A stretch of DNA of 64,000 bases from Gemmatimonadota bacterium (GTDB lineage: Bacteria; ARS69). The DNA is taken from positions 628 to 64,627 of the forward strand of contig JASLLL010000013.1 in NCBI GenBank assembly GCA_030747075.1, read 5' to 3'. Below the pieces are notes generated by a model. That model saw nothing but the letters and a program-made list of their open reading frames with translations, was not told the origin of the DNA and did not search any database. Positions 18,203 to 36,780 of the stretch are shown here, one piece after another; the stretch's first letter is position 1; each line of letters begins with the position of its first letter. Made by a program: the position numbers and the translations under genes.

Positions 18203-18206
<4 letters not shown>

Positions 18207-19021
18207 TCGATCTGCACTGCCATATCCTCCCCGGACTCGACGATGGTGCCGCGGATGATCACCAGGCGCTGGCCATGGCGAGAGCGGCTGTGGACATGGG
18301 CATTCAGGAGGTGGCGGCCACTTCGCACTTCGGGTTCTTCTCGTTGTTCTCCGCAGACTCCGGGAGCATTCGCGCGGAGCGGGATCGTCTGGTAGAACTC
18401 GTTGCGGCCGAGGGGATTCCTCTGGAGATTCACCCCGGTGCGGAGAACTACTACGGGGAGATGGAGCCCGCAGAGTTTGCATCGCGGGCGATCCCTCTGG
18501 CGGAAGGCCCGTATGTACTCATGGACTTCTCTTTTCGGCGGGTCCCGGAGACTCTGGCGGAGGGTCTCGCCCGGCTTCGGCAGGGGGGGCGGATCCCTGT
18601 GATCGCTCACCCGGAGCGGAATCGGGAAGTTCAGCTGCTGCCGAAGATTGTGGTGGACTGGTTGGATGCGGGAGCCATGCTGCAGGTGAATGCCTCCAGC
18701 CTGACAGGACTGCTTGGCGAAGATGCACAGTTGGCGGCGGAGACACTTCTGGCTGCGGGAGCCGTGCAGATACTCGGCTCGGATGCACACGACCTCAGCC
18801 GACGCCCGTTCTGCCTGAGCGCGGGAGAGGCGGCGGCGGCGGACATCGTGGGAGCGGATGCAGCAGCACGAATGGTACGCGATACCCCCCGGGCCGTGTT
18901 GCGCGGGGAGAAGATAGAAGTTCGGAGCCCGGATTCGGATCGGCTGAGCGGAGGAGCATCGCTCTTCGACCGGATGTTCGGGCGGGGGCGGGGCCAGACC
19001 GAGCAAGGAGATCGAGAGTGA
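18203..19021 (+). CDS. PHP-family Mn-dependent protein-tyrosine phosphatase (CpsB/YwqE-like)
   Basis: MIDLHCHILPGLDDGAADDH...ATSHF PHP motifs; GTG start overlaps alaS stop. Confidence 0.8.
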
Positions 19022-20085
19022 AAGGCCTGATTCTCTCCGGAGGGAAGGGAACACGACTGAGACCCATCACGCACACGAGTGCCAAGCAACTGGTGCCGGT
19101 CGCGAACAAGCCGATCCTCTTCTTCGCCATTGAAGCCGTGCGCGACGCGGGGGTCGAGGAGATCGGGATCGTGGTGGGGGAGACGGGTGCGGAGATTCGC
19201 GCGGCCGTGGGGGACGGGTCCGCGTTCGGCGTGAAGATCACCTACATCCCGCAGGAGAATCCGCTCGGACTGGCGCACGCCGTCAAGGTCTCGCGGGACT
19301 TCCTCGGCGAGGATCCATTTGTGATGTTTCTGGGCGACAACCTCATCAAGGACGGGATCACCCCACTGGTGGACGAGTTCCGGCGAGACGGCCCGAACTC
19401 GCAGATCCTCCTCGCGAGCGTGCCCAACCCGTCGGAGTTCGGGGTGGCGGAGATTGCGGACGGGAAGGTCGTCGGGTTGGAAGAGAAACCCGCGCAGCCG
19501 AAGTCGGAGTTCGCGCTGGTGGGCGTCTACATGTTCGACCGGAGCATTCACGAGGCGGTGGACAACATCCAGCCTTCCGCACGGGGAGAACTGGAGATCA
19601 CCGATGCCATCCAGTATCTGATCGACCACGACTTCGATGTACGCAGCCATGTCATTCGTGGCTGGTGGAAGGACACCGGGAAACTGGAGGACATGCTGGA
19701 AGCCAACCGGATTGTGCTGAGCAGTCTGGAGCGACGCATCGACGGGGAAGTGGACGATCGGAGCCGTATCATCGGAGAGGTCGTCGTGGGGAAGGGGGCG
19801 CGTGTGGAAAACTCCGAACTTCGCGGGCCGCTTATCCTGGGAGAGGGTGCGGTCGTGAAGGACTCCTATGTCGGGCCGTTCACATCCATTTCGGATCAGT
19901 GCGAAGTGCTTTCGTCGGAGGTGGAGTTCTCCATCATCCTGAAGGGCGGGCGCGTCCACGATCTGGACCGGCGTATGGAAGGGAGTCTTGTGGGGCGCAA
20001 CGCCACCATCCTCTCTTCCGCCGTCCGTCCCCGGGCGTACCGGTTCATGGTGGGCGACAACTCCGAGGTCCGGGTCCCCCGATGA
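19018..20085 (+). CDS. rmlA: Glucose-1-phosphate thymidylyltransferase (long form with C-terminal left-handed beta-helix)
   Basis: MKGLILSGGKGTRLRPITHTSAKQLVPV nucleotidyltransferase motif; C-terminal hexapeptide repeats. Confidence 0.85.
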   Translation: MKGLILSGGKGTRLRPITHTSAKQLVPVANKPILFFAIEAVRDAGVEEIGIVVGETGAEIRAAVGDGSAFGVKITYIPQENPLGLAHAVKVSRDFLGEDPFVMFLGDNLIKDGITPLVDEFRRDGPNSQILLASVPNPSEFGVAEIADGKVVGLEEKPAQPKSEFALVGVYMFDRSIHEAVDNIQPSARGELEITDAIQYLIDHDFDVRSHVIRGWWKDTGKLEDMLEANRIVLSSLERRIDGEVDDRSRIIGEVVVGKGARVENSELRGPLILGEGAVVKDSYVGPFTSISDQCEVLSSEVEFSIILKGGRVHDLDRRMEGSLVGRNATILSSAVRPRAYRFMVGDNSEVRVPR

Positions 20086-20981
20086 GCGCCGAACGAGGCG
20101 GTGAGTCCGCATCTCAGGCGACGGTTCGCGTGGCGGCCACCGGGTGCGCGGGCATGCTCGGGAGGGAGCTGGGTGCAGAGGCTGCGGCGCGGGGCGTGCC
20201 GTTCACCGGGTGGGATCTTCCGGACTTTGACCTGACGGATCGAGAAGCCGTGATGCGGGAGATCGGGTCGGCGCGACCGGATGTGGTAATCCATGCCGCC
20301 GCATGGACGGATGTGGATGGCTGCGAGTCGAATCCTTCGAAGGCGTTTCTTGTGAACGGACGGGCCACGGCGCATGTCGTGGAGGCGTGCCGGGAAGCGG
20401 GGGCGCGCGTCGTCCATGTCTCCACGGACTATGTGTTCCCGGGAGACCTCGACCGCCCGTACCGCGAGGACGATCTGCCCGGTCCGCTTTCCGTCTACGG
20501 TTGGTCGAAACTTGCCGGGGAGGAAGCGGTCCGTTCGCTGGGGGACGCGGGTGCCATTGCGCGGACCGCCTGGCTGTATGCGGGCCACGGTGCGAACTTC
20601 CTCCGCACGATGCTGCGTCTCGGCCGGGAGAGGGATTCCCTGGCCGTGGTCGACGACCAGTTGGGTTCACCGACCTTTGCGGGAGATCTTGCGCGGGTGT
20701 TGCTTGATCTCGCGATCGAAGGCGGGAGCGGCACATTTCACACCACCAACACCGGTTCGGTCACCTGGCACGGCTTCGCCAGCGCCATCTTTGCGGCGGC
20801 CGGAATCGGCGTCGAAGTGAAGGCGGTGACGAGTGCGGACTTCCCCCGACCGGCTCACCGCCCCGCGAACTCCGTGTTGCTGGATTCCCGGCTTGCTGAT
20901 GCGGGGATTCATCCGATGCCGTCGTGGGAAGACGGGCTGGCCCGGTGCTTTGCGGGAATGGCGAAGGAAGGTGCGGCATGA
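20082..20981 (+). CDS. rmlD: dTDP-4-dehydrorhamnose reductase
   Basis: Rossmann TGCAGMLGREL, YxxxK, RmlD substrate-binding region; ATGA overlap with rmlA stop. Confidence 0.85.
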   Translation: MSAERGGESASQATVRVAATGCAGMLGRELGAEAAARGVPFTGWDLPDFDLTDREAVMREIGSARPDVVIHAAAWTDVDGCESNPSKAFLVNGRATAHVVEACREAGARVVHVSTDYVFPGDLDRPYREDDLPGPLSVYGWSKLAGEEAVRSLGDAGAIARTAWLYAGHGANFLRTMLRLGRERDSLAVVDDQLGSPTFAGDLARVLLDLAIEGGSGTFHTTNTGSVTWHGFASAIFAAAGIGVEVKAVTSADFPRPAHRPANSVLLDSRLADAGIHPMPSWEDGLARCFAGMAKEGAA

Positions 20982-21826
20982 CGGAAGACAGCGCGGCAGT
21001 CATCGCGGCCGGGCGCGCGGACTACGACTCGGCGGTTCGGCGCGGCCGGGCGATCGACGAACTGAGTGAGTTGTTCCGATTTCGCCATCTGGTCGTACAG
21101 CTCGTGAAGCGGAATGTCACCTCGCGGTACAAGCGGTCATTCCTGGGACTGGCGTGGACTCTCCTTGATCCACTCCTCACGATGGGCGTGATGGCTGCCG
21201 TGTATTCCGCGATTATCCGGGATCGGGTGGAGGCCTTCCCTGTCTACATCTTGTCCGGGCTGGTGATCTGGAATTTCTTCTCGCAGTCGAGCACTCAGGC
21301 GATCACCTACTTCCTGCACGGGCGGGCGCTCCTCGGGCGCGTGTACATGCCCAAGGCGACGATGGGGGTGGCGGCGGTCGGCACCGGTTTCGTCAACCTG
21401 GTGGCGTCCATCATTCCACTGATGGTGTTCATGGTGATCTTCCGATGCCAGTTCACTCCCGCGCTGCTCTTCGTGCCGGTCGCCATTCTGCTGGCGTCTG
21501 CATTCACGCTGGGTGTCGGGCTCCTGGTGTCCGCATGGTCGGTTTTCTTCGGAGACATGGAGAACATTTTCCGGTTTCTCCTGCGGCTGGCCATGTATCT
21601 GTCCGGGATTTTCTACTCGCTGGACATCCTGCCGGAGCAGCTGAGACGGGTTGTCTGGTGTATGCCGACCTATCATCTGATTGAACTGTTCCGATCCCCC
21701 GTTCACACCGGGACTCTCCCGGACGGTCAGAGCATTCTGATTGGAGTCGCATGGTCGCTGGGTTTCCTTCTCGCAGGTTTCGGGTACTTCGCACGAAAGT
21801 CGAATGCGTATGCATACCGACTCTGA
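20978..21826 (+). CDS. wzm: ABC-2 type polysaccharide export permease (Wzm/TagG/KpsM family)
   Basis: 6-TM ABC-2 permease, signature NVTSRYKRSFLGLAWTLLDP; ATGA overlap with rmlD. Confidence 0.85.
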   Translation: MTEDSAAVIAAGRADYDSAVRRGRAIDELSELFRFRHLVVQLVKRNVTSRYKRSFLGLAWTLLDPLLTMGVMAAVYSAIIRDRVEAFPVYILSGLVIWNFFSQSSTQAITYFLHGRALLGRVYMPKATMGVAAVGTGFVNLVASIIPLMVFMVIFRCQFTPALLFVPVAILLASAFTLGVGLLVSAWSVFFGDMENIFRFLLRLAMYLSGIFYSLDILPEQLRRVVWCMPTYHLIELFRSPVHTGTLPDGQSILIGVAWSLGFLLAGFGYFARKSNAYAYRL

Positions 21827-22625
21827 CAGCCCGCGCGTAGCGGAACAGGCGTCGGAGAGACCCCCGGCGCTTCTTCTGTCCGGAGTGTCGGTGGCTTTCG
21901 AATCGCACCGAACACCGGCGGCCACTCTGAAGGAACACCTGATCCGCTGGACCAAGCGGGATCTTGAGAAGAAGAGTGTCCGCGCTCTGGACGGACTGGA
22001 TCTGCGGGTGGATCGGGGAGAGGTGTTTGGGATCGTCGGGAGAAACGGGGCGGGGAAGAGCACTCTCCTGCGCGTGATTTCCGGCATCCTGCACCCGTCT
22101 CGGGGAAGGGTTCGAGTCTGGGGGAAGGTCACGCCGCTTCTCGGCGTCGGTGCCGGGTTCCACGGCGATCTGACCGGGCGGGAGAATATCGCGCTTTACT
22201 CGGCCATCCTCGGGCGAAGCCCGGAGCGTACCCGTGAGCTGGTGGACGACATCATCCGCTTCTCCGAACTTGCGGACTTTATCGACGCGCCGCTTCGCGT
22301 GTACTCCGCGGGCATGTCCGCACGGCTCGGATTCGCCGTCGCACTGGCCGAGTCGCCGGAGGTCCTTCTGGTTGATGAAGTGCTCGGCGTCGGGGACGAA
22401 CAGTTCCGCCGGAAGTGCCGGGACCGCTTTGAAGAGATCCGCAAGGCCGGCGCCACCATTGTCATCGTGACGCACTCGATGTCCGTTGCCAAAGAGATGT
22501 GCGACCGACTGGCGTGGATCGAGAATGGCAAGGTCCGCGAGTGCGGGACTTCCGAAGAAGTGGCCGCATCCTATGTGGAGTTCCAGAAGGCGGTTCGGAG
22601 CGCCTCCACGATCCGCCCCCGCTGA
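21804..22625 (+). CDS. wzt: Polysaccharide export ABC transporter ATP-binding protein (Wzt/TagH family, no C-terminal carbohydrate-binding domain)
   Basis: Walker A GRNGAGKST, ABC signature, about 270 aa NBD only; start overlaps wzm end. Confidence 0.85.
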   Translation: MRMHTDSDSPRVAEQASERPPALLLSGVSVAFESHRTPAATLKEHLIRWTKRDLEKKSVRALDGLDLRVDRGEVFGIVGRNGAGKSTLLRVISGILHPSRGRVRVWGKVTPLLGVGAGFHGDLTGRENIALYSAILGRSPERTRELVDDIIRFSELADFIDAPLRVYSAGMSARLGFAVALAESPEVLLVDEVLGVGDEQFRRKCRDRFEEIRKAGATIVIVTHSMSVAKEMCDRLAWIENGKVRECGTSEEVAASYVEFQKAVRSASTIRPR

Positions 22626-22788
22626 TCGGAACCGCACTTCTCGCTCGCGGACGGGGCGAGCCGGGTCGCGGGCGGCCGCTTGACTCGGCTCCTTTCGCGT
22701 GGGAGCATCGCTCGACCCGGCCACTGATTCCCACCGTTCTGCGCAGCCCGGGCAGGTTCCCCGAGAGCCTGTGCGGAGGAGGCGCCCC

Positions 22789-25700
22789 TTGCGACCCGTG
22801 ATTCTCGTGCTTGGCATGCATCGAAGCGGCACTTCCGCAGTGGCGGGGGCCGTACGGATGCTCGGCGTAGACCTCGGGGATTCGCTGATGCCGGGACGCG
22901 CGGGGGAGAACCCACAGGGTTTCTTCGAAGACACCCGCGTCATGGCCGCCAACGAGAACATTCTGGAGTCCGCAGCGTCCTCGTGGGATGACCCCTTTGG
23001 AATCGATCCGGGCTGGTTTGATTCGGATGAAGGGAAGCCCCATGCGCGAGACCTTTCATCGCTTCTCGTGGGGATGTTCCCGGAGGATGCGCTGTGCGGA
23101 GTGAAAGACCCGCGCATCTGTCGGTTGCTTCCCGTGTGGACGGCCGCACTGGAGCAGGCGGGACTCGCGCCCCATGTCCTTCTGGTGACCAGGCCTTGCG
23201 CGGAGGTCGCCGATTCGCTGGCTCGAAGGAACGGCTTCTCGCGTGAGAAGTCGGCCTTCCTCTGGGCCGACCATGTCCTTCGGGCGGAGGAGGGGACGCG
23301 GAGGATCCCGCGAGTGTTCCTGCCCTATGCGGACCTGCTGGAGAATCCCGCCGGGGTGCTGGCCGGAGCGGGACACGCTCTGGGAATCACCTGGCCGGTA
23401 TCTCCGGAGGCGGCCTCGACACGGCTGCGCGCATTTGTCACCGGCGAGCTTCGGCACCACCGGGTCGGGGACGCGGAGAAGTCGCATCGTCGCGCAGACG
23501 GATTCGTGCGGGAACTGGATCTGCTGCTGGAAAGCGTCGCGGGCGGTTGCGGCGGCGGCGGCACGACCCGGTTTGACCGAATGGCGGAGCAAGTGGCGGC
23601 CGTCCTTCCCCGAATGGATCCGCTCTGGCAGGAACACTTGAGCCGTGGCGTCCGGGTGGCGGATCAAGTTGCGGGGCTGGAACAGACCTTGTCCGATCGG
23701 ACCGAGTGGCTGCGTGCGTCGGCGGAGGAAGTGAAGAGTCTTCGGGCCGCCGTGGAGGAGATGCGCAACGCCGGATCCAAAGACGCGACCCGCCTGCGGG
23801 TGGAAGTGGAGGAGATTCGCGCCGCGACGCTGGATGTCGGCCGGCGCGTGGATCGTCTGGACTTCTTCCGGCTTGGCATGCGACTGGTCCGGTTCTCTCG
23901 ACGGGTGGCGGGCCGCCTGGTGCGCGGCGCGGCGCGGCGAAGGAGCGCCCTTCACGGCAGACTCCGCGACGCATTCCTGAAGCGGCCGGTGACCCGCGCG
24001 CGAGTGACTGGGATTGCACTGCCTCAGCATGAACATCCGGATGTCTCGATCATCATCCCCGTGTTCAACCAGACGGGTCATACCGTCCGGTGCCTGGAAT
24101 CGCTGGCGGCATTGCGGGAGGAGACCTCCTTCGAGGTGGTCCTGGTGGATGACGCCTCCACGGCCGCGTCGATTGGCCTGCTGGCGTCGGTAAGGTCGAT
24201 CCGACTCGTGCGAAACGAACGCAATCTCGGGTTTGTGCATTCGTGCAATCGGGGCGCGAAGGAGGCGAAGGGGCGGCACCTTCTCTTCCTGAACAACGAC
24301 ACGCGCGTGGAGCCGGGTTTCCTGGACCGGCTTCGGGCCTCTTTGGAGGAGTTCCCGGATGCGGGGATTGTGGGTGCCCAACTGGTGTACCCGGACGGCC
24401 GCCTGCAGGAATCGGGCGGGATCGTCTGGGAGGACGCCAGTGCGTGGAATTACGGTCACGGGAGAGACCCGTCCGCACCGGAGGTTTCGTATCTTCGCGA
24501 AGTCGATTACTGCTCCGGTGCATGCATCCTGGTGGACCGGAGTCTGTTCAACGAACTGGGCGGGTTCGATGAGCGGTACGCTCCCGCCTACTACGAAGAT
24601 GTGGATCTTGCTTTTCGCGTTCGCGAGGCCGGTCGACGCGTGCTTGTCAACCCTGTGGCGCGTGTCATTCATTGCGAAGGTGCCACTTCCGGTACGGACC
24701 CGGAGAGTGGTGTGAAGCGGTACCAGGTGCGCAACCAGCAGATCTTCCTGGATCGATGGCGGAAGGAACTTGGCTGCCACGGCCGAAACGGGGAAGACCC
24801 GGAACGGGCGAAGGAGCGGAAGGCCCGTTCCCGCGTCCTCGTCATCGACCACCGTATGCCGACTCCCGATCAGGACGCGGGATCGCAGCGAATCCAATGG
24901 ATGATGCGGATTCTTCGCGACCTCGGCCATCGAGTGACCTTTCTGCCCGACAATCTACTCCCGTCCGAACCCTACGGGGCAGACCTTCGCGCGCTGGGCG
25001 TGGAGGTATGGCAGTCACCGCACCTCAGGACGATCCGCCACTTCCTGGAGTGCCGGGGGAGCGAGTTCGATCTTGTGATTCTGAGCCGTCTGGGTACGGC
25101 GGGAACTCATATCGATGATGTGCGGAGGCTCTGTCCGCGGGCGCGGGTCGTCTTCGATACGGTGGACCTGCACTTTCTTCGTGAAGAGCGGGCCGCAGAG
25201 TTGACCGGGAGTGCCGCCGATCTCGCGGCCGCGCGGGAGACACGCACGCGGGAACTCTCGGTGGCCCGCCGTGCGCACGAGACGCTGGTCGTCAGTGAAG
25301 AGGAACGCGAACTCATCCAGAGCATCGATCCGAATCTCGCCGTGCGTATCGTCCCCACCATCCACGAGACTTCCGCGTCCGGGCTTCCATTCGAGGAGCG
25401 GCACGGACTTCTCTTCGTGGGGGGGTTCGAGCATCCGCCCAATGCTGATGGCGTCCGGTGGTTCGTGGAGACCGTGCTGCCGATGGTACGGGAGGAACTG
25501 CCGGATGTTTCGCTTCGGATCGTGGGCAGCAAGCCGACACCGGAGATGGATGCTCTCGCGGGACGGGGCGTGGATGTCGCCGGGTGGGTGCCGGATCTCG
25601 AAGCGCTTCTCCGCGAGTCCCGGGTATCCATCGCGCCGCTCCGGTTTGGCGCCGGGGTGAAGGGGAAAGTCTGCGAGAGCCTCGCGCACGGGTTGCCGAC

Positions 25701-25971
25701 CGTGGGAACGAGCATCGCCTGCGAGGGGATGGCGCTCACTCATCGAACAGACATCTGCATCGCGGACACGGCGCACGACTTCGCGCGGGAAGTGGTGCGT
25801 CTGCATCAGGATCGTGCCTTGTGGACGCAGTTGGCCTCAGCGGGGCAGGAAGTGATCCGGAACCGGTTCTCTCCCGCCGTAGCCAGGGACGCACTTCGAC
25901 GACTGGGGCGCGGCCCCGCCGAATCCCCCCGGGGGGGACTCCTGGCGGTGGAAGCCCAACTACTCTCATGA
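22789..25971 (+). CDS. Multidomain glycan-modifying enzyme: sulfotransferase - coiled-coil - GT2 - GT4(GT-B)
   Basis: N-term PAPS 5'-PSB motif GMHRSGTS and 3'-PB-like VKDPR; central heptad-rich helix; GT2 (VSIIIPVFN...VVLVDDAS); C-terminal GT4 with E-x7-E (GVKGKVCESLAHGLP). TTG start with GGAGGA RBS. Confidence 0.8.
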   Translation: MRPVILVLGMHRSGTSAVAGAVRMLGVDLGDSLMPGRAGENPQGFFEDTRVMAANENILESAASSWDDPFGIDPGWFDSDEGKPHARDLSSLLVGMFPEDALCGVKDPRICRLLPVWTAALEQAGLAPHVLLVTRPCAEVADSLARRNGFSREKSAFLWADHVLRAEEGTRRIPRVFLPYADLLENPAGVLAGAGHALGITWPVSPEAASTRLRAFVTGELRHHRVGDAEKSHRRADGFVRELDLLLESVAGGCGGGGTTRFDRMAEQVAAVLPRMDPLWQEHLSRGVRVADQVAGLEQTLSDRTEWLRASAEEVKSLRAAVEEMRNAGSKDATRLRVEVEEIRAATLDVGRRVDRLDFFRLGMRLVRFSRRVAGRLVRGAARRRSALHGRLRDAFLKRPVTRARVTGIALPQHEHPDVSIIIPVFNQTGHTVRCLESLAALREETSFEVVLVDDASTAASIGLLASVRSIRLVRNERNLGFVHSCNRGAKEAKGRHLLFLNNDTRVEPGFLDRLRASLEEFPDAGIVGAQLVYPDGRLQESGGIVWEDASAWNYGHGRDPSAPEVSYLREVDYCSGACILVDRSLFNELGGFDERYAPAYYEDVDLAFRVREAGRRVLVNPVARVIHCEGATSGTDPESGVKRYQVRNQQIFLDRWRKELGCHGRNGEDPERAKERKARSRVLVIDHRMPTPDQDAGSQRIQWMMRILRDLGHRVTFLPDNLLPSEPYGADLRALGVEVWQSPHLRTIRHFLECRGSEFDLVILSRLGTAGTHIDDVRRLCPRARVVFDTVDLHFLREERAAELTGSAADLAAARETRTRELSVARRAHETLVVSEEERELIQSIDPNLAVRIVPTIHETSASGLPFEERHGLLFVGGFEHPPNADGVRWFVETVLPMVREELPDVSLRIVGSKPTPEMDALAGRGVDVAGWVPDLEALLRESRVSIAPLRFGAGVKGKVCESLAHGLPTVGTSIACEGMALTHRTDICIADTAHDFAREVVRLHQDRALWTQLASAGQEVIRNRFSPAVARDALRRLGRGPAESPRGGLLAVEAQLLS

Positions 25972-29106: not shown

Positions 29107-29110
29107 GGGT

Positions 29111-30223
29111 TCATCTCCCCGCCGCCCTGCGATATCCGTCCCGCGTCGCCCGCGCAGTTTCCGCCCAGTCGAAGAGGGCGGCGCGGGCCGGGCCGAGTGC
29201 CGCGAGTTCCCCGCGACGGCGGTCGTCCATCCAGAGCCGCGCGAGGGCATCCGCAAGCGCACGGGCGGTCTCCACCGATGCAAACGCGGCCGCGTCGCCC
29301 AGGACTTCGCGATGCGGAGGGATGTCGCTGGCGAGCACCGGCCCGCCGCAGGCCGCCGCTTCCAGCGCGGGGAGCCCGAAGCCTTCGCATCGCGAGGGAA
29401 CGAGTACCAGTCTCGCTCCGGCATACAGAAGCGGAAGGTCGGTGTCGGTTACGGGACACAGGATGCGGACGCGCGAAACCCCCGCGGCAATGGGTTCCAG
29501 TCTGGCGCGGGTTTCGTGATCGCGTGCCGGGATGACGAGTTCCGCGTCGGCGAGTCCCGCGGCGCGAAACGCACGGAGCGCGCCGTCGAGATTCTTGTGG
29601 GGCCGATGCGAAGCGACGCAGAGGAGGAAGGGCCGTGTGAGACCCCGACCCGCCAGGAACTCCGTCACGCTCTCAGGCGATGGCGGAGCGAACACAGGCG
29701 CAACGGCGTGGGGGATCACCGTGAACCGGTCGGCCGGAGCGCGAAGGCACCGGGTCAGCTCCGCCCGGGCCGCTTCCGAGCCGGTGAAGAGAACGGCGGA
29801 CGACCGGATCGACCACGCCATCATGATGCGGGCGTAGAGCCGGTGGAGCGGAGAGCGGGGGAAGAGCAAGTGGATGGGGTCATGCATCGTGACCACCACG
29901 CGGCACCCGGGAGCCGCCGAGCGCACATAGTGCGGGAAGTGCAGAACATCGAGCTGATGCCGGCTTGCCGCGCCACGGAAGGCCGCCAGTTCCTTCACGC
30001 TGTAGAGCGGCGCACGGCATTGCGCCAGCCGGAAGCGCTCCGGGTCGAGGAGTTCAGGCAGTCCCCCCGGAAGCGCACGGAGATCCGGCTCCGGAAGAAA
30101 GAGCGTGTACCGCTCCGGACCGTGGAGTCCGGCGAGCCCCGTGAGGAGTCCCTCAAGGTATCGTCCGATTCCGAAGTCGCGGATCTTGCGCGCATCGATG
30201 CCGATGTGCAGCGGAGCAGTCAT
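29111..30223 (-). CDS. Glycosyltransferase family 4 (GT-B)
   Basis: GT4 C-terminal domain with EGFGLPALEAAACGGPVL (E-x7-E); ATG overlaps stop of upstream GT4 (ATGA). Confidence 0.8.
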   Translation of the reverse strand: MTAPLHIGIDARKIRDFGIGRYLEGLLTGLAGLHGPERYTLFLPEPDLRALPGGLPELLDPERFRLAQCRAPLYSVKELAAFRGAASRHQLDVLHFPHYVRSAAPGCRVVVTMHDPIHLLFPRSPLHRLYARIMMAWSIRSSAVLFTGSEAARAELTRCLRAPADRFTVIPHAVAPVFAPPSPESVTEFLAGRGLTRPFLLCVASHRPHKNLDGALRAFRAAGLADAELVIPARDHETRARLEPIAAGVSRVRILCPVTDTDLPLLYAGARLVLVPSRCEGFGLPALEAAACGGPVLASDIPPHREVLGDAAAFASVETARALADALARLWMDDRRRGELAALGPARAALFDWAETARATRDGYRRAAGR

Positions 30224-31359
30224 CGGTCGGCGGCCTCCATGGCTTTGCGGTAGGTGTCCAGCGTAGCGCGTGCGGCTGCTTTCCATGAGAACTTCTTCGC
30301 CCGGACCTGCCCCGCGCTCCTCAGTGCGGCATGGAGTTCGGGATCGTTGAGCGCGCGGAGAATGCCGCGGGCGATCGAGCCCGGTTCGTGCGGATCGATC
30401 ATGACGGCGGCTTCGCCCGCGATCTCCCGAATGGATGGGATCGCGCTGGCCACCACGGGCACGCCGCACGCCATCGCTTCCAGTACGGGCAGACCGAATC
30501 CCTCTTCGAACGAAGGGAAGACGAACGCTTCCGCCCCGGAGTAGAGCGCCGGGAGATCCTTCGCATCCACGAATCCGGTTGTGAGGACGGAATCCGCGGG
30601 GTCGTCACCCTCCAGGGCGCGGACGAACTCGCTCTCAAGCCATGCGGCCTTCCCCGCCACGACGAGGCGGAGGTTGCTTTCGTGGGCGTTGCGCACTTCC
30701 CGAAAGGCACGCAGCAGTCCGGGGAGGTTCTTGCGAGGCTCCAGATTCCCCACGAAGAGAAGGTACGGTTGCGAGATGTTCAGCTTGTGCAGGACCTCGT
30801 CCACCCGCGTGGGAGTCTCCGGGGAGAAGCGGGATGCCACGCCGTGGGGGATGGCGTCGATCCTGTGGGCCGGAATGTGGAAGGCGGCGCACAGATTCTC
30901 CCGCATGGCACCCGATCCCGTGATGACGCGGGTCGCGCGGCGCAGGGACTTCGGGATGAGCCAGCGCATGTAGGCGGCGTATCGACGGGGGATGGTCTGC
31001 GGGTGCGTAAAGGCGATCAGGTCGTGGATTGTGGCAACAGCGACGGGCTTTCCGGGGAAGAGGGGGACGAGGTAGTTCGGTCCGTGGATGAGATCCACGC
31101 CGAGCTTTCTGGCCCGGCGGGGCAGGACGAAGTGCTCCCATGCGTCACCCGACGGATGGCTTTCGTGAGAGAAGGGGGCCTCGATCAGCTGGAATCGACC
31201 GTCGAGGTCGAGCCCCCGCAGGGCCGTCTCCGCAGGGGCAAGGAGCAGGAACTCGTGGTCGCTGTCGATCTGCGAGAAGCCCCTCACCAGCTCAAGGACA
31301 TAGTTCCCCACGCCGGAGAACTCACGCCCCACCGTTCGGGCATCGAGGAGGATTCGCAT
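30220..31359 (-). CDS. Glycosyltransferase family 4 (GT-B)
   Basis: MRILLDARTV... GT4 N-domain; EEGFGLPVLEAMACGVPVV E-x7-E. Confidence 0.85.
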   Translation of the reverse strand: MRILLDARTVGREFSGVGNYVLELVRGFSQIDSDHEFLLLAPAETALRGLDLDGRFQLIEAPFSHESHPSGDAWEHFVLPRRARKLGVDLIHGPNYLVPLFPGKPVAVATIHDLIAFTHPQTIPRRYAAYMRWLIPKSLRRATRVITGSGAMRENLCAAFHIPAHRIDAIPHGVASRFSPETPTRVDEVLHKLNISQPYLLFVGNLEPRKNLPGLLRAFREVRNAHESNLRLVVAGKAAWLESEFVRALEGDDPADSVLTTGFVDAKDLPALYSGAEAFVFPSFEEGFGLPVLEAMACGVPVVASAIPSIREIAGEAAVMIDPHEPGSIARGILRALNDPELHAALRSAGQVRAKKFSWKAAARATLDTYRKAMEAADR

Positions 31360-31492
31360 CGGTCGGTCCGGCCTCCCGGCGGGGAGGCTCCCCCCGCGAT
31401 GCGTCAGCGTACGATGGTGCGCCCCTTCGGGCGACGCGATTCTTCCCGGAGAGCCGCCGGGCTGTTACCTTGCGCCCTCGGGAGGGGATGCC

Positions 31493-32623
31493 GTGCGCGT
31501 TGCTCTGGTTCACGACTGGCTGACGGGAATGCGGGGCGGGGAGAGAGTCCTCGAAGTCTTCTGCGACCTCTTCCCGGGGGCGGACCTCTTCACGCTGGTT
31601 CATATTCCCGGCGCAGTCTCTTCGGTGATTGAAGACCGCAGAATCATCACCAGTCCGCTCTCGCGCCTGCCGGGAATCGCCCGGAGTTACCGGTACTTCC
31701 TCCCGCTCTTCCCGGCGATGGTGGAGCGCTTCGACCTTCGCGACTACGATCTCGTGGTGTCGTCCTCGCACTGCGTGGCGAAGGCCGTTCGGCCCGGTCC
31801 CGGCGCACGCCATGTCTCCTATGTGCACACGCCCATGCGGTATCTCTGGGATCGCTACGAAGACTACTTCGGAGGCGGGTGGGCCGGGCCCGCCACGCGC
31901 GCGGCCATGGCGACGCTGCGCGGCCCCTTGCGTCGCTGGGATCGGCGGACCTGCGATCGCGTGGATGCTTTCGTCGCGAACTCGCGCTTCGTCGCCGAGG
32001 CGATCGACCGGATCTATGGACGCACCGCGGAGGTGGTCCATGCGCCGGTGGATACGGATCTCTTCAGCGAGAGTGGGGAACCGCGCGGGGAGGAGTGGCT
32101 GGTCGTCTCCGCATTCGCCCCGTACAAGCGCGTGGATGTGGCCATTCGTGCCGCGCGCCGAGCGGGAGTCCGGCTTGCGATTGTCGGCGTGGGGCCGATG
32201 GAGAGCGATCTCCGTCGGCTTGCCGGTTCGGGCGTCCGCTTCCTCGGGTCGGTCCCGGCGGACGAACTCGTAAGGCTCTACTCCACGGCGCGGGGTCTTC
32301 TCTTCCCCGGCGTGGAGGACTTCGGGATCGTCCCCCTGGAGGCGATGGCGTGCGGATGCCCGGTGGTCGCGCTCGACCGGGGCGGAGCGCTGGAGACGGT
32401 GGTGGGTGCCGAGTGGGCCGGAGACCCGGCTGGCGTTTCGACCGGGGCCACGGGGCTTTTTGTCGGCGAACAGACGCCGGAGGCTTTTGCGCACGGAATC
32501 ACAGTGGTAGAGAGCGCCGAGGTCGCCTTCGATCCGGACGCGTGCCGGAAACGGGCCGAGGAGTTCTCCACCGGGGTATTCCGGAGCCGAATGGCGCAGA
32601 TTCTGGGAATCGTCAGCGCCTGA
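31493..32623 (+). CDS. Glycosyltransferase family 4 (GT-B)
   Basis: MRVALVHDWLTGMRGGERV...; VEDFGIVPLEAMACGCPVV; divergent from minus-strand GT block; GTG start with GGGAGGGG RBS. Confidence 0.85.
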   Translation: MRVALVHDWLTGMRGGERVLEVFCDLFPGADLFTLVHIPGAVSSVIEDRRIITSPLSRLPGIARSYRYFLPLFPAMVERFDLRDYDLVVSSSHCVAKAVRPGPGARHVSYVHTPMRYLWDRYEDYFGGGWAGPATRAAMATLRGPLRRWDRRTCDRVDAFVANSRFVAEAIDRIYGRTAEVVHAPVDTDLFSESGEPRGEEWLVVSAFAPYKRVDVAIRAARRAGVRLAIVGVGPMESDLRRLAGSGVRFLGSVPADELVRLYSTARGLLFPGVEDFGIVPLEAMACGCPVVALDRGGALETVVGAEWAGDPAGVSTGATGLFVGEQTPEAFAHGITVVESAEVAFDPDACRKRAEEFSTGVFRSRMAQILGIVSA

Positions 32624-32735
32624 CCTTCCGACGCTGGGCGTCTTGACACGGGTGCGACGCGGGTGGGACTCTGGCATGGGTTTCCGGGAACCCCGGACCG
32701 GGGTGACTCCGGAACGGGGCCGGGGAGGGGGAGTC

Positions 32736-33317
32736 ATGGACATCGACGGAATCCGGGAGTCCATGACGGAGACCGTGCGCGTGCTGGAGCGTCTCCGGGA
32801 CGAGACCGCTCCGGCAGTGGCCGCCGTCTCCGAGGAGCTTGTTCGGTGTGTGACGGCCGGTGGGCGCATCCTGGTCTGCGGCAATGGAGGGAGCGCGGCG
32901 GACTCCCAGCACATGGCCACGGAACTCACGGTCCGGTTCCGGAAGCAGCGCCGTGCGATTTCCGCGCTTGCCCTCACGGTGGATTCCTCGGTGCTTACCG
33001 CAGCTTCCAACGATCTGGGCTTCGCGAAGGTGTTCAGTCGCCAGGTGGAAGCTCACGGGAAGGCGGGAGATGTGCTGATCGCGATCTCCACCAGTGGGAA
33101 CTCACCGAATGTGGTGGAGGCGGTCCGTGAGGCCCGCGTGCGGGGACTGGTCACCGTGGCGCTCACGGGAGCGGCGGGGGGGGCGCTTGCCTCGGAAGTG
33201 GACCACTGGATCGGCGTGCCTTCCGAAGAGACTCCACAGATTCAGGAAGCGCATCTCGTGGTGGAACACCTGCTCTGCGAAGCCATGGAAGACGCGGTGG
33301 CGGAGGATGCGCCGTGA
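32736..33317 (+). CDS. gmhA: D-sedoheptulose-7-phosphate isomerase (SIS domain)
   Basis: GGRILVCGNGGSAADSQHMATE...ISTSGNSPNV GmhA signature. Confidence 0.85.
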   Translation: MDIDGIRESMTETVRVLERLRDETAPAVAAVSEELVRCVTAGGRILVCGNGGSAADSQHMATELTVRFRKQRRAISALALTVDSSVLTAASNDLGFAKVFSRQVEAHGKAGDVLIAISTSGNSPNVVEAVREARVRGLVTVALTGAAGGALASEVDHWIGVPSEETPQIQEAHLVVEHLLCEAMEDAVAEDAP

Positions 33318-34852
33318 CACCGGGAGACACCACCACGCCTCCGTCCACGGGAGGAGCCCCGCCGACGCTCCCGCGTGCGGCGATCGCGGATCGGGCGATG
33401 CGTCGCATCCTGAAGTCCGCGTCCACCGTTCCGACGCCCTCGGCCTCGTCTCTGGAACCCGCGCTCTTTGCCGCCATCTGGGTGGCACTGGACGGCATCG
33501 CGGTGACGACGGCATTTCTTGCGGCGTACTGGATCCGGTTCACCTCCGCGTGGATTCCCGCTCCACTCGGCGTGCCGCCTCTGGCGACCTATGTGCCGGT
33601 TCTCGCGGTGGTGCTTCCGGTGTCGATCTGGGCTTATCGCCGCTGTGGCCTCTACCGGCCCGGCCGCGTCTCCTCCTTCAGCCGGGATTCGCTGTCCGGC
33701 GTGAGAGCGGCGGCTCTTGCGGTCGTGGTGCTGGTAGCGGCGGCCTTCTTCTACCGCAGCACTTCCTTCTCCCGGGGGTTTGTCGCGCTCTTCTGGGTGG
33801 CGACGACCGTGGCATTCCCGGTGTTTCGCCGCGTGGCATCGGTGGTGCATGGTGGGCTTCGCAAGAGGGGACACGGCGTGGCACGGATCGCCATTCTTGG
33901 CGGGGGAGAGGTGGCGCGTCGGCTGGAGGAAGAGATCCGCTCCGGCCCGGGCTCCGGGTTGATCGTTGCGGCATCACTCGGAGGAGACGACTGGCGTCCG
34001 CCCGGCGTTTCCCCGGAGTCTTCCGAGGATCGAGCGCTGCGGACCGCCAGAGTTCGAAACCTCGTCCGGTCCCGGAGGATTCACCGCATCCTGGTGACGG
34101 ATGCCGGGCTCTCCTTCGACAGCCGCATGGACCTCATGGAAGAGTGCCATTCGCTGGGGATTTCCTGCGGATTCGTCCCGGATCTCTTTGAGGTGCTCGT
34201 GGGGAGGACCCATGTCGAGGACATCGGCGGGTTTCCGCTGGTCGGGTTCCGGATGTTTCCGCTGGACCGATGGGATCGGTTTCAGAAGCGTTCCCTGGAC
34301 ATCGCCGGGTCACTCCTGGGGCTGGTTGCGTTGCTGCCCCTTCTGGCGTTTGTCGCGCTCTGCGTGCGTCTGGATTCGCCCGGTCCGGTCTTCTATCGCC
34401 AGCAGCGTCTGGGGCGGGACGGCCGTGAGTTCGACATTGTGAAGTTCCGTTCGATGCATCCCGGAGTGGAGAGCGACACCGGTCCCGTGCGTGCCCGTCG
34501 TACGGATGGTCGTCCCACTCGGGTGGGACGCGTGATCCGCCGTCTCAGTCTCGATGAGCTCCCTCAGCTGTGGAATGTCCTGCGAGGGGTGATGTCGCTG
34601 GTGGGACCACGCCCGGAGCGGCCTCATTTCGTAAGTGAATACCAGCGCAGAATCCCGCGCTATCTGGAGCGACATGAAGTGAAGTCCGGCATGACCGGCT
34701 GGGCACAGGTCAATGGTTTTCGGGGCGACACATCCATCGAGGGGCGCACCCGACTGGATCTGTGGTATCTGGAGAACTGGTCGCTGGCTCTGGATGTGAA
34801 GATCCTGGTGCTGACGGCCGTTCGGTTTCTCTTTCAGAAGGAGGCATTCTGA
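33314..34852 (+). CDS. Polyprenyl-phosphate hexose-1-phosphate transferase (WbaP/bacterial sugar transferase family), initiating enzyme
   Basis: N-terminal TM helices, CoA-binding-like linker, C-terminal bacterial sugar transferase domain (DIVKFRSM...DELPQLWNVLRGVMSLVGPRP). Confidence 0.85.
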   Translation: MTPGDTTTPPSTGGAPPTLPRAAIADRAMRRILKSASTVPTPSASSLEPALFAAIWVALDGIAVTTAFLAAYWIRFTSAWIPAPLGVPPLATYVPVLAVVLPVSIWAYRRCGLYRPGRVSSFSRDSLSGVRAAALAVVVLVAAAFFYRSTSFSRGFVALFWVATTVAFPVFRRVASVVHGGLRKRGHGVARIAILGGGEVARRLEEEIRSGPGSGLIVAASLGGDDWRPPGVSPESSEDRALRTARVRNLVRSRRIHRILVTDAGLSFDSRMDLMEECHSLGISCGFVPDLFEVLVGRTHVEDIGGFPLVGFRMFPLDRWDRFQKRSLDIAGSLLGLVALLPLLAFVALCVRLDSPGPVFYRQQRLGRDGREFDIVKFRSMHPGVESDTGPVRARRTDGRPTRVGRVIRRLSLDELPQLWNVLRGVMSLVGPRPERPHFVSEYQRRIPRYLERHEVKSGMTGWAQVNGFRGDTSIEGRTRLDLWYLENWSLALDVKILVLTAVRFLFQKEAF

Positions 34853-34865
34853 TGCCCATCGGAGA

Positions 34866-35243
34866 ATGCACTTGATGAGGAATGTACTGCTCATTCTGGT
34901 GTGCGTCGCCCTCGGCGTCTGCGGACAACTTCTGCTGAAGCACGGGATGAGTTCGCCCGGTATCCGTGTCACCGCGGCTTCCCAGATTCCTGCCATGATC
35001 GGGCGGGCGATCGCTACGCCTTCGGTCGTCTCCGGCTTCCTCTTCTACGGGCTCTCGTCCGTGTTGTGGCTCGTCATCCTCACGAGAGTGGAGCTTTCCA
35101 TGGCCTACCCGATGCTCTCCATCGGATATGTGCTGGTCGTGTTTCTCTCGCGGTTCTTCTTCCATGAGCATGTGACTCCCATGCGCATTCTGGGGACACT
35201 CGTCGTTTGTCTTGGCGTGTTCCTGATCTCGCGATCCCAATGA
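34866..35243 (+). CDS. Small 4-TM DMT/SMR-like membrane protein (ArnE/ArnF-like flippase subunit)
   Basis: 125 aa, 4 predicted TM helices, EamA-like; family assignment by architecture only. Confidence 0.6.
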   Translation: MHLMRNVLLILVCVALGVCGQLLLKHGMSSPGIRVTAASQIPAMIGRAIATPSVVSGFLFYGLSSVLWLVILTRVELSMAYPMLSIGYVLVVFLSRFFFHEHVTPMRILGTLVVCLGVFLISRSQ

Positions 35244-35899
35244 GCACCGCCGAGACGACGCGCCCCATCGTCATTGGGATTGCAGGCGGGAGCGGGTCCG
35301 GGAAGACCACGGTCGCCCTGCGTGTGGCGGACCATTTCGAGAATCGGAAGGTGGTCATTCTCCATCACGACAGCTACTACCGGGATCGATCCGATCTCCC
35401 GCTGGAGGACCGGCGGCGCCTCAACTACGATCACCCGGACTCCTTCGAGAATGAACTGGTGGTCGAGCACCTGGTGGCGCTTCGTACGGGAGAGGCGATT
35501 CCACGCCCGACCTACAACTACGAGAGCCACTGCCGCGAGGAGAAGCCTGTCTCCGTGGGGCCAGCGCACATCATTCTCCTGGAGGGGATTCTCGTATTGG
35601 ATATCCCGGAGATCCGGGAGTTGCTGGACATCAAGCTGTATGTGGACTGCGCGGCGGACGAACGGCTGACGCGCCGCATCCTGCGCGATCTCCACGAACG
35701 CGGCCGTTCCGTGCATTCGGTTCTGAATCAGTACACGGACACGGTCCGCCCCATGCATCTTCAGTTCGTGGAACCGTCCAAGCGTCACGCGGATGTGATC
35801 ATCCCGAGGGGCGGGTTCAACGAGGTCGCCATAGACCTGATCGTTTCCCGGATGCGTGAGATTCTCACCAGACTCAGCGAAGTCGAGGTGGAGCGATGA
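35240..35899 (+). CDS. udk: Uridine kinase
   Basis: IVIGIAGGSGSGKTT P-loop, NYDHPDSF, full-length similarity to Udk; ATGA-like overlap with upstream gene. Confidence 0.85.
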   Translation: MSTAETTRPIVIGIAGGSGSGKTTVALRVADHFENRKVVILHHDSYYRDRSDLPLEDRRRLNYDHPDSFENELVVEHLVALRTGEAIPRPTYNYESHCREEKPVSVGPAHIILLEGILVLDIPEIRELLDIKLYVDCAADERLTRRILRDLHERGRSVHSVLNQYTDTVRPMHLQFVEPSKRHADVIIPRGGFNEVAIDLIVSRMREILTRLSEVEVER

Positions 35900-36780
35900 C
35901 CGCCCTCATCACGCTGGCGCGCCCCCGCCAGTGGATCAAGAATATCGTGGTGTTCGCGGGCGTCGTGTTCGCCGGGAGGCTGGGGGATCCTGCCTTCGCG
36001 GTCAGAGCGGCGGCCGCGTTCGCCATCTTCTGCGTGCTGTCGAGCGCCATCTATGTGTTCAACGACTTGATGGATGTGGAGAAGGACCGTCTCCATCCCC
36101 GCAAGCGCACACGGCCGTTGGCCTCGGGAAGGGTCGGGCGCCCGATTGCGGCGGTGTTCCTGTTGGCGCTTGTGCTGGCGGGACTCTTCGCGGCATTCCG
36201 GGCGGGGCCGCGCTTCGGACAGGCGGCGGTGGCGTTCCTGCTCCTCAACGGGATGTACTCGCTGTGGCTCAAGCGGCACGCCATGATCGATGTCATGTGC
36301 ATCTCCGTGAGCTTTCTGATTCGGGCCATTGCAGGGGTGCGGATTCTTCAGGACGCGGACCCGACCGTGGCTCTCTCCAACTGGCTGCTTCTGTGTACTT
36401 TTTTCCTGGCGCTCTTTCTGGGATTCGGGAAGCGAAGGTCGGAACTGGTTCTCCTGGAGGGGGATGCTTCTGAGCATCGCGCATCGCTGGGCGAGTACTC
36501 GGTGGAACTTCTCGACATGGTGATTTCCATCGTGACCACCAGTGCAATCCTGTCCTTTTCCATCTACACAATCTGGCCGGAGACCATCGCGAATCTCGGC
36601 ACGGACAAACTCGTTTACACGGTGCCGGTCGTCATGTATGGCTTCCTCCGGTATCTGTTCCTGATCAGGGAGAGGGGGCTCGGGGGCAACCCGTCGGAAA
36701 TCCTCTTCCGGGATCCCCCCCTGTTGGCCGGAGTGGTGGCGTGGGTCGTCGCGGTGGTCGGCCTTCTGTATCTCCGCTGA
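35896..36780 (+). CDS. UbiA-family prenyltransferase, decaprenyl-phosphate phosphoribosyltransferase-like
   Basis: QWIKNIVVFAGVVFAG...NDLMDVEKDRLHPRKRTRPLASGRV: Asp-rich UbiA motifs and overall architecture as DPPR synthase (Rv3806c type). Confidence 0.7.
   Translation: MTALITLARPRQWIKNIVVFAGVVFAGRLGDPAFAVRAAAAFAIFCVLSSAIYVFNDLMDVEKDRLHPRKRTRPLASGRVGRPIAAVFLLALVLAGLFAAFRAGPRFGQAAVAFLLLNGMYSLWLKRHAMIDVMCISVSFLIRAIAGVRILQDADPTVALSNWLLLCTFFLALFLGFGKRRSELVLLEGDASEHRASLGEYSVELLDMVISIVTTSAILSFSIYTIWPETIANLGTDKLVYTVPVVMYGFLRYLFLIRERGLGGNPSEILFRDPPLLAGVVAWVVAVVGLLYLR

Follow-up and report, generated by a model that had tools for sequence, protein, structure and literature searches.

In described systems of glycan assembly that depend on an ATP-binding cassette (ABC) transporter and on a terminator, the terminating enzyme lies at the distal end of a coiled coil, and the glycosyltransferase (GT) modules of the polymerase lie at, or are recruited to, the other end (PMC11231755). 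The coiled coil serves as a molecular ruler, and only terminated chains are exported, the cap being read by a carbohydrate-binding module (CBM) of the transporter ATPase, Wzt; the experimentally characterised chain-length terminators are all coupled to a CBM-bearing Wzt (PMC11231755). In WbbB (serotype O12) and ORF6 (O7), terminator, ruler and two GTs are united in a single polypeptide (PMC11231755). WsaE of Geobacillus stearothermophilus combines an N-terminal capping methyltransferase (MTase) with two rhamnosyltransferase domains, and its cluster, which has the order wzm-wzt-wsaE, also includes rml genes and an initiating enzyme like WbaP (PMC2943079). In WbdD of Escherichia coli O9a and Klebsiella pneumoniae O3, a kinase and a class I S-adenosylmethionine (SAM) MTase are found in one protein (PMC3482155). 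Termination and length control in ABC-dependent systems are known from these few enterobacterial and Geobacillus enzymes, and the caps are methyl, methylphosphate or Kdo. Here we describe a locus of 16 genes (18203-36780, between alaS and ispE) in a 64,000-nt stretch of DNA from an uncultured marine Gemmatimonadota bacterium (contig JASLLL010000013.1), which we call the window. The locus is of a known ABC-dependent kind; what is probably new is a sulfotransferase in the slot of the terminator, on a giant protein of 1060 aa, and its partner, a 487-aa fusion of a kinase of the thymidine kinase 1 (TK1) fold with a WbdD-like MTase.

From its gene content, the locus is supported as a cluster for ABC-transporter-dependent glycan assembly, the route to which a sequence-only reading of this DNA had assigned it. 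It encodes Wzm, Wzt and a polyprenyl-phosphate glycosylphosphotransferase (PGT), and neither wzx nor wzy was found anywhere in the window, to which the absences reported here refer. A priming enzyme (the PGT) and a protein with the dual GT2 and GT4 modules of a cytoplasmic multi-GT polymerase are both present. All 16 genes listed in the earlier reading were recovered in the same order and on the same strands by Pfam, NCBIfam and public gene calls, its Wzm/Wzt and GT assignments agree with domain searches of each open reading frame (ORF), and the genes it had reported missing (rmlB and rmlC, hldE and gmhB, wzx and wzy) are lacking, as is hddC. Scores of the locus genes against Pfam and NCBIfam were compared with the curated cut-offs. 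The NCBIfam cut-offs were passed by rmlA, rmlD, udk, the decaprenylphosphoryl-phosphoribose (DPPR) synthase and the PGT at its subfamily model, and for CpsB, Wzm and Wzt the curated Pfam models were passed. Below the trusted cut-offs of NCBIfam were the proteins that resemble GmhA and ArnE/F. The reading towards which we cautiously lean, and which we place slightly on the probable side, is of one polyprenol-linked, ABC-dependent glycan locus with a GT2-GT4 polymerase and a sulfotransferase that caps the chain by way of a coiled-coil ruler.

The giant gene (22789-25971, plus strand) starts with TTG at 22789, 8 nt behind a GGAGGAGG Shine-Dalgarno sequence, and this start gives 1060 aa; the calls on public contigs are of 1057-1060 aa. 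Its product comprises a sulfotransferase, a coiled-coil spacer, an amphipathic helix, a GT2 and a GT4, of which Pfam recognises the GT2 and GT4 modules only. The N-terminal domain (aa 1-286; 22789-23646, plus strand) adopts, in its predicted structure, the fold of sulfotransferases that use 3'-phosphoadenosine-5'-phosphosulfate (PAPS), and homologues, motifs, an AlphaFold2 (AF2) model and Foldseek agree on this. A search with the N-terminal 413 aa returned 839 homologues at E≤1e-3, and 25 of 33 sampled homologues match PF13469 (Sulfotransfer_3). Invariant in the 33 are M-H-R-S-G-T-S, K-D-P-R, and R134 and S142, which are eight residues apart. We take MHRSGTS and R...S to be the patterns of the 5'-phosphosulfate and 3'-phosphate PAPS-binding motifs, going by motif pattern and not by superposition. 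The AF2 model, built on the N-terminal alignment, has a mean predicted local distance difference test score (pLDDT) of 84.9, with values above 90 over the catalytic domain. When it was compared with the PDB by Foldseek, the first 28 matches were all sulfotransferases, and TPST1/2, the CurM ST, Stf1, SULTs and 3-OST were matched at probability 1.00. A profile search of the sulfotransferase/coiled-coil alignment against the PDB was swamped by coiled-coil proteins and was replaced by AF2 and Foldseek; in that search the spacer matched SMC proteins and designed coiled coils. The giant sulfotransferase/GT2/GT4 enzyme of the earlier reading is thus upheld by homology, by structure prediction and by fold search.

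The sulfotransferase is followed by a heptad-periodic helical spacer (aa ~287-357; 23647-23859, plus strand), a candidate coiled-coil ruler by its AF2 helix and its a/d periodicity. The model has a single unbroken helix over residues 289-397, and the a/d hydrophobic periodicity of aa 287-400 has z = 4.4 against shuffles, compared with z 0.3-0.4 in the catalytic domains. The spacers of orthologues have heptad z of 5.4-9.4; they are heptad-periodic in four of five sulfotransferase fusions and range in length from 120 to ~320 aa. Just before the GT2 there is a basic amphipathic helix (aa ~358-385; 23860-23943, plus strand), with a hydrophobic moment of 0.74-0.78 and a net charge of +4 to +6, several residues of which are identical in a Robiginitomaculum locus described below (L007). 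By its moment and charge it is a candidate membrane-association segment. The GT2 (GT-A) module (24037-24687, plus strand) matches PF00535 (E 1.7e-21) and PF13641 (E 4e-15), and its sequence matches in the PDB are GT2/GT27 enzymes. The GT4-type (GT-B) module (24826-25908, plus strand) matches PF13692 (E 1e-23) and TIGR03087 (E 4e-35). Since the coiled-coil spacer stands between the sulfotransferase and the GTs, the giant protein, and not the kinase/MTase alone, is the best candidate for the terminator that the earlier reading anticipated.

The giant protein resembles WbbB (K. pneumoniae O12/Raoultella terrigena) and O7 ORF6 in having an N-terminal non-polymerising enzyme, a helical spacer and two C-terminal GTs, encoded beside wzm/wzt. 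It differs from them in its N-terminal domain, a PAPS-sulfotransferase fold where O12 has a β-Kdo GT99 and O7 a methyltransferase-kinase, and also in its Wzt without a CBM, its shorter spacer, its initiation by a WbaP-type PGT and its Gemmatimonadota host. The slg cluster of G. stearothermophilus NRS 2004/3a shares with the locus the order wzm-wzt-trifunctional enzyme, a WbaP-like initiator (WsaP), rml genes and adaptor GTs. However, the N-terminal domain of WsaE is a 2-O-methyltransferase instead of a sulfotransferase, and the slg product is the S-layer protein glycan of a Gram-positive bacterium, whereas neither an oligosaccharyltransferase nor an S-layer gene was seen in the window. PAPS-dependent sulfation of surface polysaccharides is carried out by the rhizobial LpsS/KpsS and by enzymes of the cyanobacterial synechan (xss) cluster. 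To our knowledge these sulfotransferases are stand-alone, none being fused to a coiled coil and polymerase GTs. The sulfotransferase-domain ORF in the O-antigen cluster of Aeromonas salmonicida is a small stand-alone protein. We found no description of a sulfotransferase in the terminator position, with a coiled coil and Wzm/Wzt, in the literature that was searchable, which is incomplete.

The 487-aa protein (25988-27451, plus strand), whose gene starts after 16 non-coding nt behind the giant gene, consists of a TK1-fold kinase-like domain (aa 1-~180; 25988-26527), a WbdD-like class I SAM MTase (aa ~205-420; 26600-27247) and a C-terminal tail; both domains were assigned by profile and by Foldseek. 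Pfam finds only the class I MTase, and neither Pfam nor NCBIfam gives a thymidine kinase match. The family profile matches TK1-type thymidine kinases in the PDB over positions 7-171 (E 3.6e-5) and the MTase domain of WbdD over positions 206-365 (E 3.6e-8). In an AF2 model with a pLDDT of 77.7, WbdD is the top Foldseek match (E 1.4e-10, root-mean-square deviation 3.5 Å over 234 columns) and MePCE, which makes methylphosphate caps, also ranks near the top, although such a ranking among class I MTases discriminates weakly; TK1 enzymes (Thermotoga maritima and Bacillus cereus TK) are matched with TM scores of 0.72-0.77. Invariant in the family are the P-loop GxxGxGKTT, a Walker-B F-D-E-A (D91/E92, with a catalytic-type Glu) and the zinc-ribbon cysteines C141, C144, C167 and C170. 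True tdk genes are 23-31% identical to the TK-like domain over about 150-200 aa, and one family member had independently been named 'methyltransferase/thymidine kinase' by the Joint Genome Institute. The family is rare: among 1.84 billion representatives, an exhaustive hidden Markov model search found 59 proteins at E≤1e-30, and a word-indexed search of 5.8 billion clusters gave nine matches to the 487-aa protein. Its longer members, of 690-870 aa (P0264, P0265, P0266, P0269, P0272, P0273 and P0284), have extra C-terminal regions that resemble, by eye, second MTase domains, which suggests enzymes that perform several methylations.

The description 'kinase-fold/MTase fusion' was therefore correct, the kinase fold being of the TK1 type, with P-loop and zinc ribbon, and not the protein-kinase-like fold of WbdD. 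As in WbdD, a kinase and a class I SAM MTase share one protein in an ABC-transporter-dependent locus; unlike in WbdD, the domain order is reversed, the kinase has a TK1-type fold, there is no C-terminal coiled coil and the partner Wzt has no CBM. The AF2 model of the 487-aa protein contains no long helix or coiled coil. Because of its TK1 fold and the missing coiled coil, the protein is not a member of the WbdD family and could be a functional analogue only. A TK1-fold kinase in a capping enzyme was not found described in the searchable, and incomplete, literature.

The GTDB species representatives include only one full-length relative of the 487-aa protein, encoded in a Robiginitomaculum metagenome-assembled genome (MAG; NVXG01000047.1, our locus L007). 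L007 contains cysD, a cysN/cysC fusion and the TK1-fold/MTase (TK-MTase) gene; divergently from these it contains wzt, wzm and the gene of a 1135-aa protein, after which come wza, a phosphoesterase, wzc and a porin. Over its whole length the 1135-aa protein shares 32% identity with the giant protein of the window, and its spacer is longer, at about 200 aa; the TK-MTase orthologue is 38% identical. Since wzm, wzt, the giant gene and the TK-MTase gene are shared, a four-gene module is conserved across phyla, and in L007 it lies beside genes for the sulfate donor. The TK-MTase gene of L007 is directly downstream of cysD-cysN/C on the same strand (176-5047) and from this position looks co-transcribed with PAPS synthesis and not with the polymerase. 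Homologues of the PAPS genes of L007 were found near six related loci (L055, L059, L062, L096, L101 and L105), and TK-MTase homologues adjoin giant-type sulfotransferase genes in L025 and L028.

A metagenome scan gave 80 loci and showed the GT2-GT4 module to be widespread, with identities of 40-50%. The sulfotransferase-GT2-GT4 fusion occurs in full length in L068, where the spacer has about 320 aa, and in L071/72, L078 and L083, and as a split version in L067. Genes for Wzm and/or Wzt are nearby in L067, L068 and L083; near L071/72 and L078 no match to wzm or wzt was found. Stand-alone homologues of the sulfotransferase/coiled-coil part also neighbour glycan genes: on an Acidobacteriota contig the homologue is beside a 680-aa GT2-GT4 protein, and the same locus has wzt and a PGT; in Tautonia, which we take to belong to the Planctomycetota, it is beside GT2 and GT4 genes; and in a Pseudomonadota MAG it is beside a GT4/RgpF protein and an MTase. 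In other relatives the N-terminal position is held by extra GT modules. In L070 (4583-10028), a Methyltransf_24 domain and a spacer precede the same GT2-GT4 module, and the order is again wzm-wzt-giant. The N-terminal position is thus one at which capping enzymes are swapped in.

In the scheme that we prefer, the WbaP/WcaJ-type transferase would prime polyprenyl phosphate. Four single-domain GTs would build an adaptor and/or side branches, with dTDP-L-rhamnose (rmlA, rmlD) as one donor. Held at the membrane by the basic amphipathic helix, the GT2 and GT4 modules of the giant protein would polymerise the chain there, and the sulfotransferase at the far end of the spacer would sulfate the non-reducing end once the chain reaches far enough. 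The ruler/terminator logic would be that of WbbB, K. pneumoniae O7 ORF6, WbdD and WsaE, and the cap would be a sulfate. The TK1-fold kinase/WbdD-like MTase, apparently co-transcribed, may add phosphate and/or methyl (methylphosphate) as a decoration. The short Wzm/Wzt pump would export the glycan without a cap-reading CBM. The DPPR-synthase-type enzyme and a small protein with four transmembrane segments (4-TM) probably supply and flip polyprenyl-phosphoribose, which a GT-C, none being encoded in the locus, would use for the extracytoplasmic addition of pentofuranose. The analysis shows the genes, their domain folds and architecture and the conservation of the core module; the capping, the ruler function, the substrates and the destination of the glycan are inferred.

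Several observations weigh against this scheme. The Wzt of the locus lacks the C-terminal CBM of the terminator subtype, and the Wzt is short as well in three of the four further loci of the sulfotransferase type (247-255 aa in L007, L067 and L068), only that of L083 (4132-4890) being long (424 aa). An export checkpoint in which the transporter reads the cap is therefore unsupported for most sulfotransferase-type loci. The pairing of all characterised terminators with a CBM-bearing Wzt means further that the sulfate may be a decoration and not an export-licensing cap, or may stop the chain chemically without being read by the transporter. The coiled-coil part of the window protein is short, about 70-110 residues, and the protein has no Pfam sulfotransferase match of its own at E≤0.01. 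Two candidate cappers are encoded, the sulfotransferase and the TK-MTase, and fold ranking, as said above, does little to single out WbdD among MTases. The TK-MTase is lacking in L067, L068, L071/72, L078 and L083 (for the full-length loci, within ±8 kb); since it is lacking from four full-length fusion loci it is an accessory, and its candidacy as an obligate partner of the giant protein was rejected on the same ground. Finally, genes for PAPS synthesis (cysC, cysD, cysN), rmlB and rmlC, an outer-membrane exporter or outer-membrane polysaccharide export (OPX) protein, a ligase and a phosphoribose GT-C were not found in the window.

One alternative, which we consider a real possibility though short of probable, is that the 18.6 kb are not one system. 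The glycan cluster would then extend from cpsB to the divergent GT4 gene, and the gmhA-like gene, udk and the DPPR-synthase/4-TM pair would be genes of other envelope or housekeeping functions that happen to adjoin ispE-prs. The 3' block begins with a GmhA-like SIS-domain protein of 193 aa (32736-33317, plus strand; PF13580 E 5e-29), which is under its cut-offs, a point for this alternative. Next is the large, initiating PGT of the WbaP/WcaJ type (33314-34852, plus strand; PF02397 E 1e-65), with five hydrophobic segments; it scores 415.5 bits against a cut-off of 295.6 at TIGR03025, and 407.9 bits, just under 410.75, at TIGR03023 (WcaJ). This PGT argues for a single system, being needed by the cluster and yet sitting inside the 3' block, where its gene overlaps the GmhA-like gene by 4 nt. 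It is followed by an ArnE/F-like (EamA/SMR-like) protein of 122 aa with four hydrophobic segments (34875-35243, plus strand; PF00892 E 3e-7; ArnF model 63 bits against a cut-off of 99), by udk (35240-35899, plus strand; NF004018 276 bits against 180, TIGR00235 246 bits against 220), a bona fide uridine kinase and as such a point for two systems, and by a UbiA-family polyprenyl-phosphate phosphoribosyltransferase of the DPPR-synthase type (35896-36780, plus strand; NF008977 276 bits against 234, PF01040 E 1e-25, seven hydrophobic segments), named decaprenyl-phosphate phosphoribosyltransferase by NCBI. The genes from gmhA to UbiA are tightly packed on one strand, which again speaks for one system, and udk overlaps both the candidate flippase gene and the DPPR-synthase gene by 4 nt. 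Directly downstream are ispE, spoVG, prs, ctc and pth, the 3' genes do not recur in related loci except for a DPPRS-like match in L062 and an ArnE/F-like match in L053, and there is no linked GT-C, the only GT-C-like gene of the window lying in a conserved SMC-ftsY synteny; these three points favour two systems. That the gmhA-like gene, udk and the DPPR-synthase/4-TM pair serve the same glycan is uncertain.

The ArnE-like, udk and UbiA genes of the earlier reading are present as it said, and we would rather read the first and the last as two parts of a side-branch system based on polyprenyl-phosphoribose. Pentofuranose side chains are added outside the cytoplasm by a polyprenyl-phosphoribose synthase, a flippase (MATE, or SMR in mycobacteria) and a GT-C (PMC11127046). 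The locus plausibly has two of these three components, the DPPR-synthase-type enzyme and the 4-TM candidate flippase. In its UbiA enzyme matching the DPPR-synthase model and its small multi-TM candidate flippase it is like the systems of Citrobacter youngae O1/O2 and the mycobacterial DPPR synthase, Rv3789 and arabinosyltransferases (PMC11127046); it is unlike them in that no GT-C, phosphoribose phosphatase or epimerase was found in 18203-36780 and in that udk lies between the two genes. The prs gene, which supplies phosphoribosyl pyrophosphate for DPPR synthase, is 1.5 kb downstream (38248-39186).

The only GT-C-like gene in the window is 24 kb from the locus. It is an ORF (61184-63523, plus strand) whose 779-aa product is a polytopic membrane protein, with 8 or more hydrophobic segments and a C-terminal part that is soluble. 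The protein has no Pfam match of its own above threshold, while most of its homologues have PF09586 (YfhO) and/or PF10131. From these features it is likely to be a GT-C-type glycosyltransferase that uses a polyprenyl-phosphate sugar. Its synteny with SMC, ftsY and a GAF/PAS response regulator is found in Gemmatimonadota, Zixibacteria and Latescibacterota. It was tried as the missing GT-C and rejected, because other phyla conserve this synteny without a UbiA gene in the neighbourhood, and we claim no link between it and the phosphoribose branch.

Returning to the giant protein, a sulfotransferase that caps the chain has to be weighed against one that decorates internal residues along the whole chain, yielding the kind of sulfated polysaccharide that is typical of marine bacteria, with the spacer serving only to oligomerise or to position the enzyme, and with chain length set by the ratio of polymerase to transporter as in K. 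pneumoniae O2a. We regard internal decoration as rather unlikely. It agrees with the short Wzt without a CBM in the window, L007, L067 and L068, and with the extra stand-alone sulfotransferases in L025, which suggest multiple sulfation. There is also a precedent in the terminal pyruvate of K. pneumoniae O1, which only diversifies the structure and is needed neither for chain-length control nor for export (PMC11231755). However, the order modifier, coiled coil, GT-GT is in the literature a marker of terminator/ruler systems, and the spacer varies strongly in length between orthologues. Moreover, in L070 a capping-type MTase occupies the same position, and there the Wzt is long: it has 458 aa with a C-terminal extension of 209 aa, which may be a CBM.

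It is unlikely, in our view, that the TK1-fold/MTase protein is the real terminator, making a methylphosphate or O-methyl cap with a P-loop kinase in place of that of WbdD, and that the sulfotransferase is a separate decorating enzyme. The MTase domain is matched best in structure by WbdD, which also gives the longest profile alignment, and MePCE ranks high; the family is invariant in the P-loop, the catalytic-type Glu and the cysteines of the zinc ribbon; and the gene, separated from the giant gene before it by 16 non-coding nt, is in four of five contexts beside giant-type sulfotransferase genes. These features would suit a terminator, but the 487-aa protein has no coiled coil, Wzt has no CBM, and most full-length sulfotransferase-GT2-GT4 loci do without the protein. 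In addition, what the longer family members gain is MTase-like domains, and not ruler-like helices. Very unlikely is the further alternative that the TK1-like domain is a nucleotide-binding module (for dT/dTDP or an adenosine nucleotide) in a protein that methylates a nucleotide sugar (such as dTDP-rhamnose) or has a sulfur nucleotide as its substrate. For it stand the binding of thymidine and dTTP by TK1 enzymes, the production of a dTDP-sugar by the locus and the position of the L007 gene behind cysD-cysNC; against it stand the conservation of the catalytic-type Glu and of a complete P-loop, as in an active phosphotransferase, the lack of rml genes in the flanks of L007, and the fact that the nearest MTase relatives modify polymers at their phosphate groups.

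A wider reading can be put forward tentatively, although we consider it doubtful in this full form: the coiled-coil PAPS sulfotransferases, which are found in more than 800 clusters either stand-alone or fused to GT2-GT4, would be a large unrecognised class of capping rulers with sulfate as the terminating group, and in a subset of them the TK1-fold kinase-MTase would replace the WbdD kinase non-homologously and make a methylphosphate cap. A nucleoside-kinase fold would in that case have been recruited to phosphorylate a polysaccharide. For the locus itself, confirmation of the capping reading would extend the chemistry of glycan termination, give a function to a large family of 'hypothetical' coiled-coil sulfotransferases of environmental bacteria, and provide an unambiguous example of a single conserved polymerase on which capping enzymes are exchanged as modules. 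It would also offer a genetic handle on the sulfated polysaccharides of marine bacteria, with a bearing on marine carbon cycling and on the engineering of sulfated glycans.

Of the remaining genes of the locus, the first encodes a CpsB/CapC-like PHP-family phosphatase (18203-19021, plus strand), which matches PF19567 over its full length (1-234/234, E 5.7e-42) and has the same public gene call; no bacterial tyrosine kinase (BY-kinase) partner for it was found in the window. It is followed by the long form of rmlA, for glucose-1-phosphate thymidylyltransferase (19018-20085, plus strand; TIGR01208 455.5 bits against a cut-off of 320), and by rmlD, for dTDP-4-dehydrorhamnose reductase (20079-20981, plus strand; TIGR01214 302 bits against 224, PF04321 E 2e-92). 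The dTDP-rhamnose-type sugar of the earlier reading is thus backed by two enzymes that pass equivalog cut-offs; rmlB and rmlC were not found in the window. The heptose that it also proposed is a weak inference from sequence, as it depends on the one GmhA-like SIS protein, whose scores are 200 and 182 bits against cut-offs of 276 and 209. Wzm (20978-21826, plus strand) is an ABC-2 permease of 282 aa with five hydrophobic segments (PF01061 E 5e-18), whose best NCBIfam match, under its cut-off, is the galactan Wzm/RfbD. Wzt (21804-22625, plus strand) is an ABC ATPase of 273 aa with a nucleotide-binding domain only (PF00005 E 8e-20); its best NCBIfam matches are TagH and the galactan Wzt/RfbE, at E 1e-54 to 1e-55. 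The gene is followed on its 3' side by 163 nt of non-coding DNA.

Behind the fusion gene there are three GT genes on the minus strand. The first, for a GT2 of 548 aa (27460-29106; PF00535 E 1e-12), has a public gene call, and its N-terminal 265 aa (28312-29106) have no Pfam match even at E≤5. The others are for GT4 enzymes, one of 370 aa (29111-30223; PF00534 E 2e-20, PF13439 E 1e-12), which also has a public gene call, and one of 379 aa (30220-31359; PF00534 E 6e-37, PF13439 E 8e-21). Divergent from this trio is the gene of a further GT4, of 376 aa (31493-32623, plus strand; PF00534 E 2e-21).

At the 5' border, the cpsB-like gene starts with a GTG, in a 4-nt overlap with the alaS stop (18203-18206), and cpsB, rmlA, rmlD, wzm and wzt overlap in succession. 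From these chained overlaps, the glycan genes look translationally coupled to the essential alaS and not placed behind a promoter of their own. A scan of the locus for sigma-70 promoters found none, and intrinsic terminators were fewer than in shuffles, which makes both uninformative on operon structure. The upstream flank is recA-recX-alaS and the downstream flank ispE-spoVG-prs-ctc-pth, and the remainder of the window consists of housekeeping genes. The G+C content is ~65% across the window, and the locus matches its flanks without a compositional break. No tRNA or Rfam element was found at the locus borders, and a tRNA-flanked or compositionally distinct island was rejected as a description of the locus on these two grounds.

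The mechanical ORF list of the window contains many spurious long antisense ORFs, of 600-930 aa over real genes, for example at 35785-37722, 40649-43444 and 23056-24930 (all on the minus strand). They have no domain matches, are not called on public contigs and are expected at 65% G+C; several other mechanical ORFs extend beyond the real genes. Because many mechanical ORFs are spurious in such DNA, gene boundaries were set by domain searches and by independent gene calls on six public contigs. These contigs were chosen as encoding exactly the same 487-aa protein and come from TARA, other marine metagenomes and the MAGs GCA_030749095.1 and GCA_030744955.1. They are of the same population, their gene map is identical to that of the window, and their proteins are labelled 'Gemmatimonadota bacterium' at NCBI. 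Elsewhere in the window there are two tRNA clusters (3304-3653 and 8763-9267), with four tRNA-Ser of different anticodons, a tRNA-Arg and a tRNA-Ala, and a small signal recognition particle RNA is encoded just upstream of dnaX.

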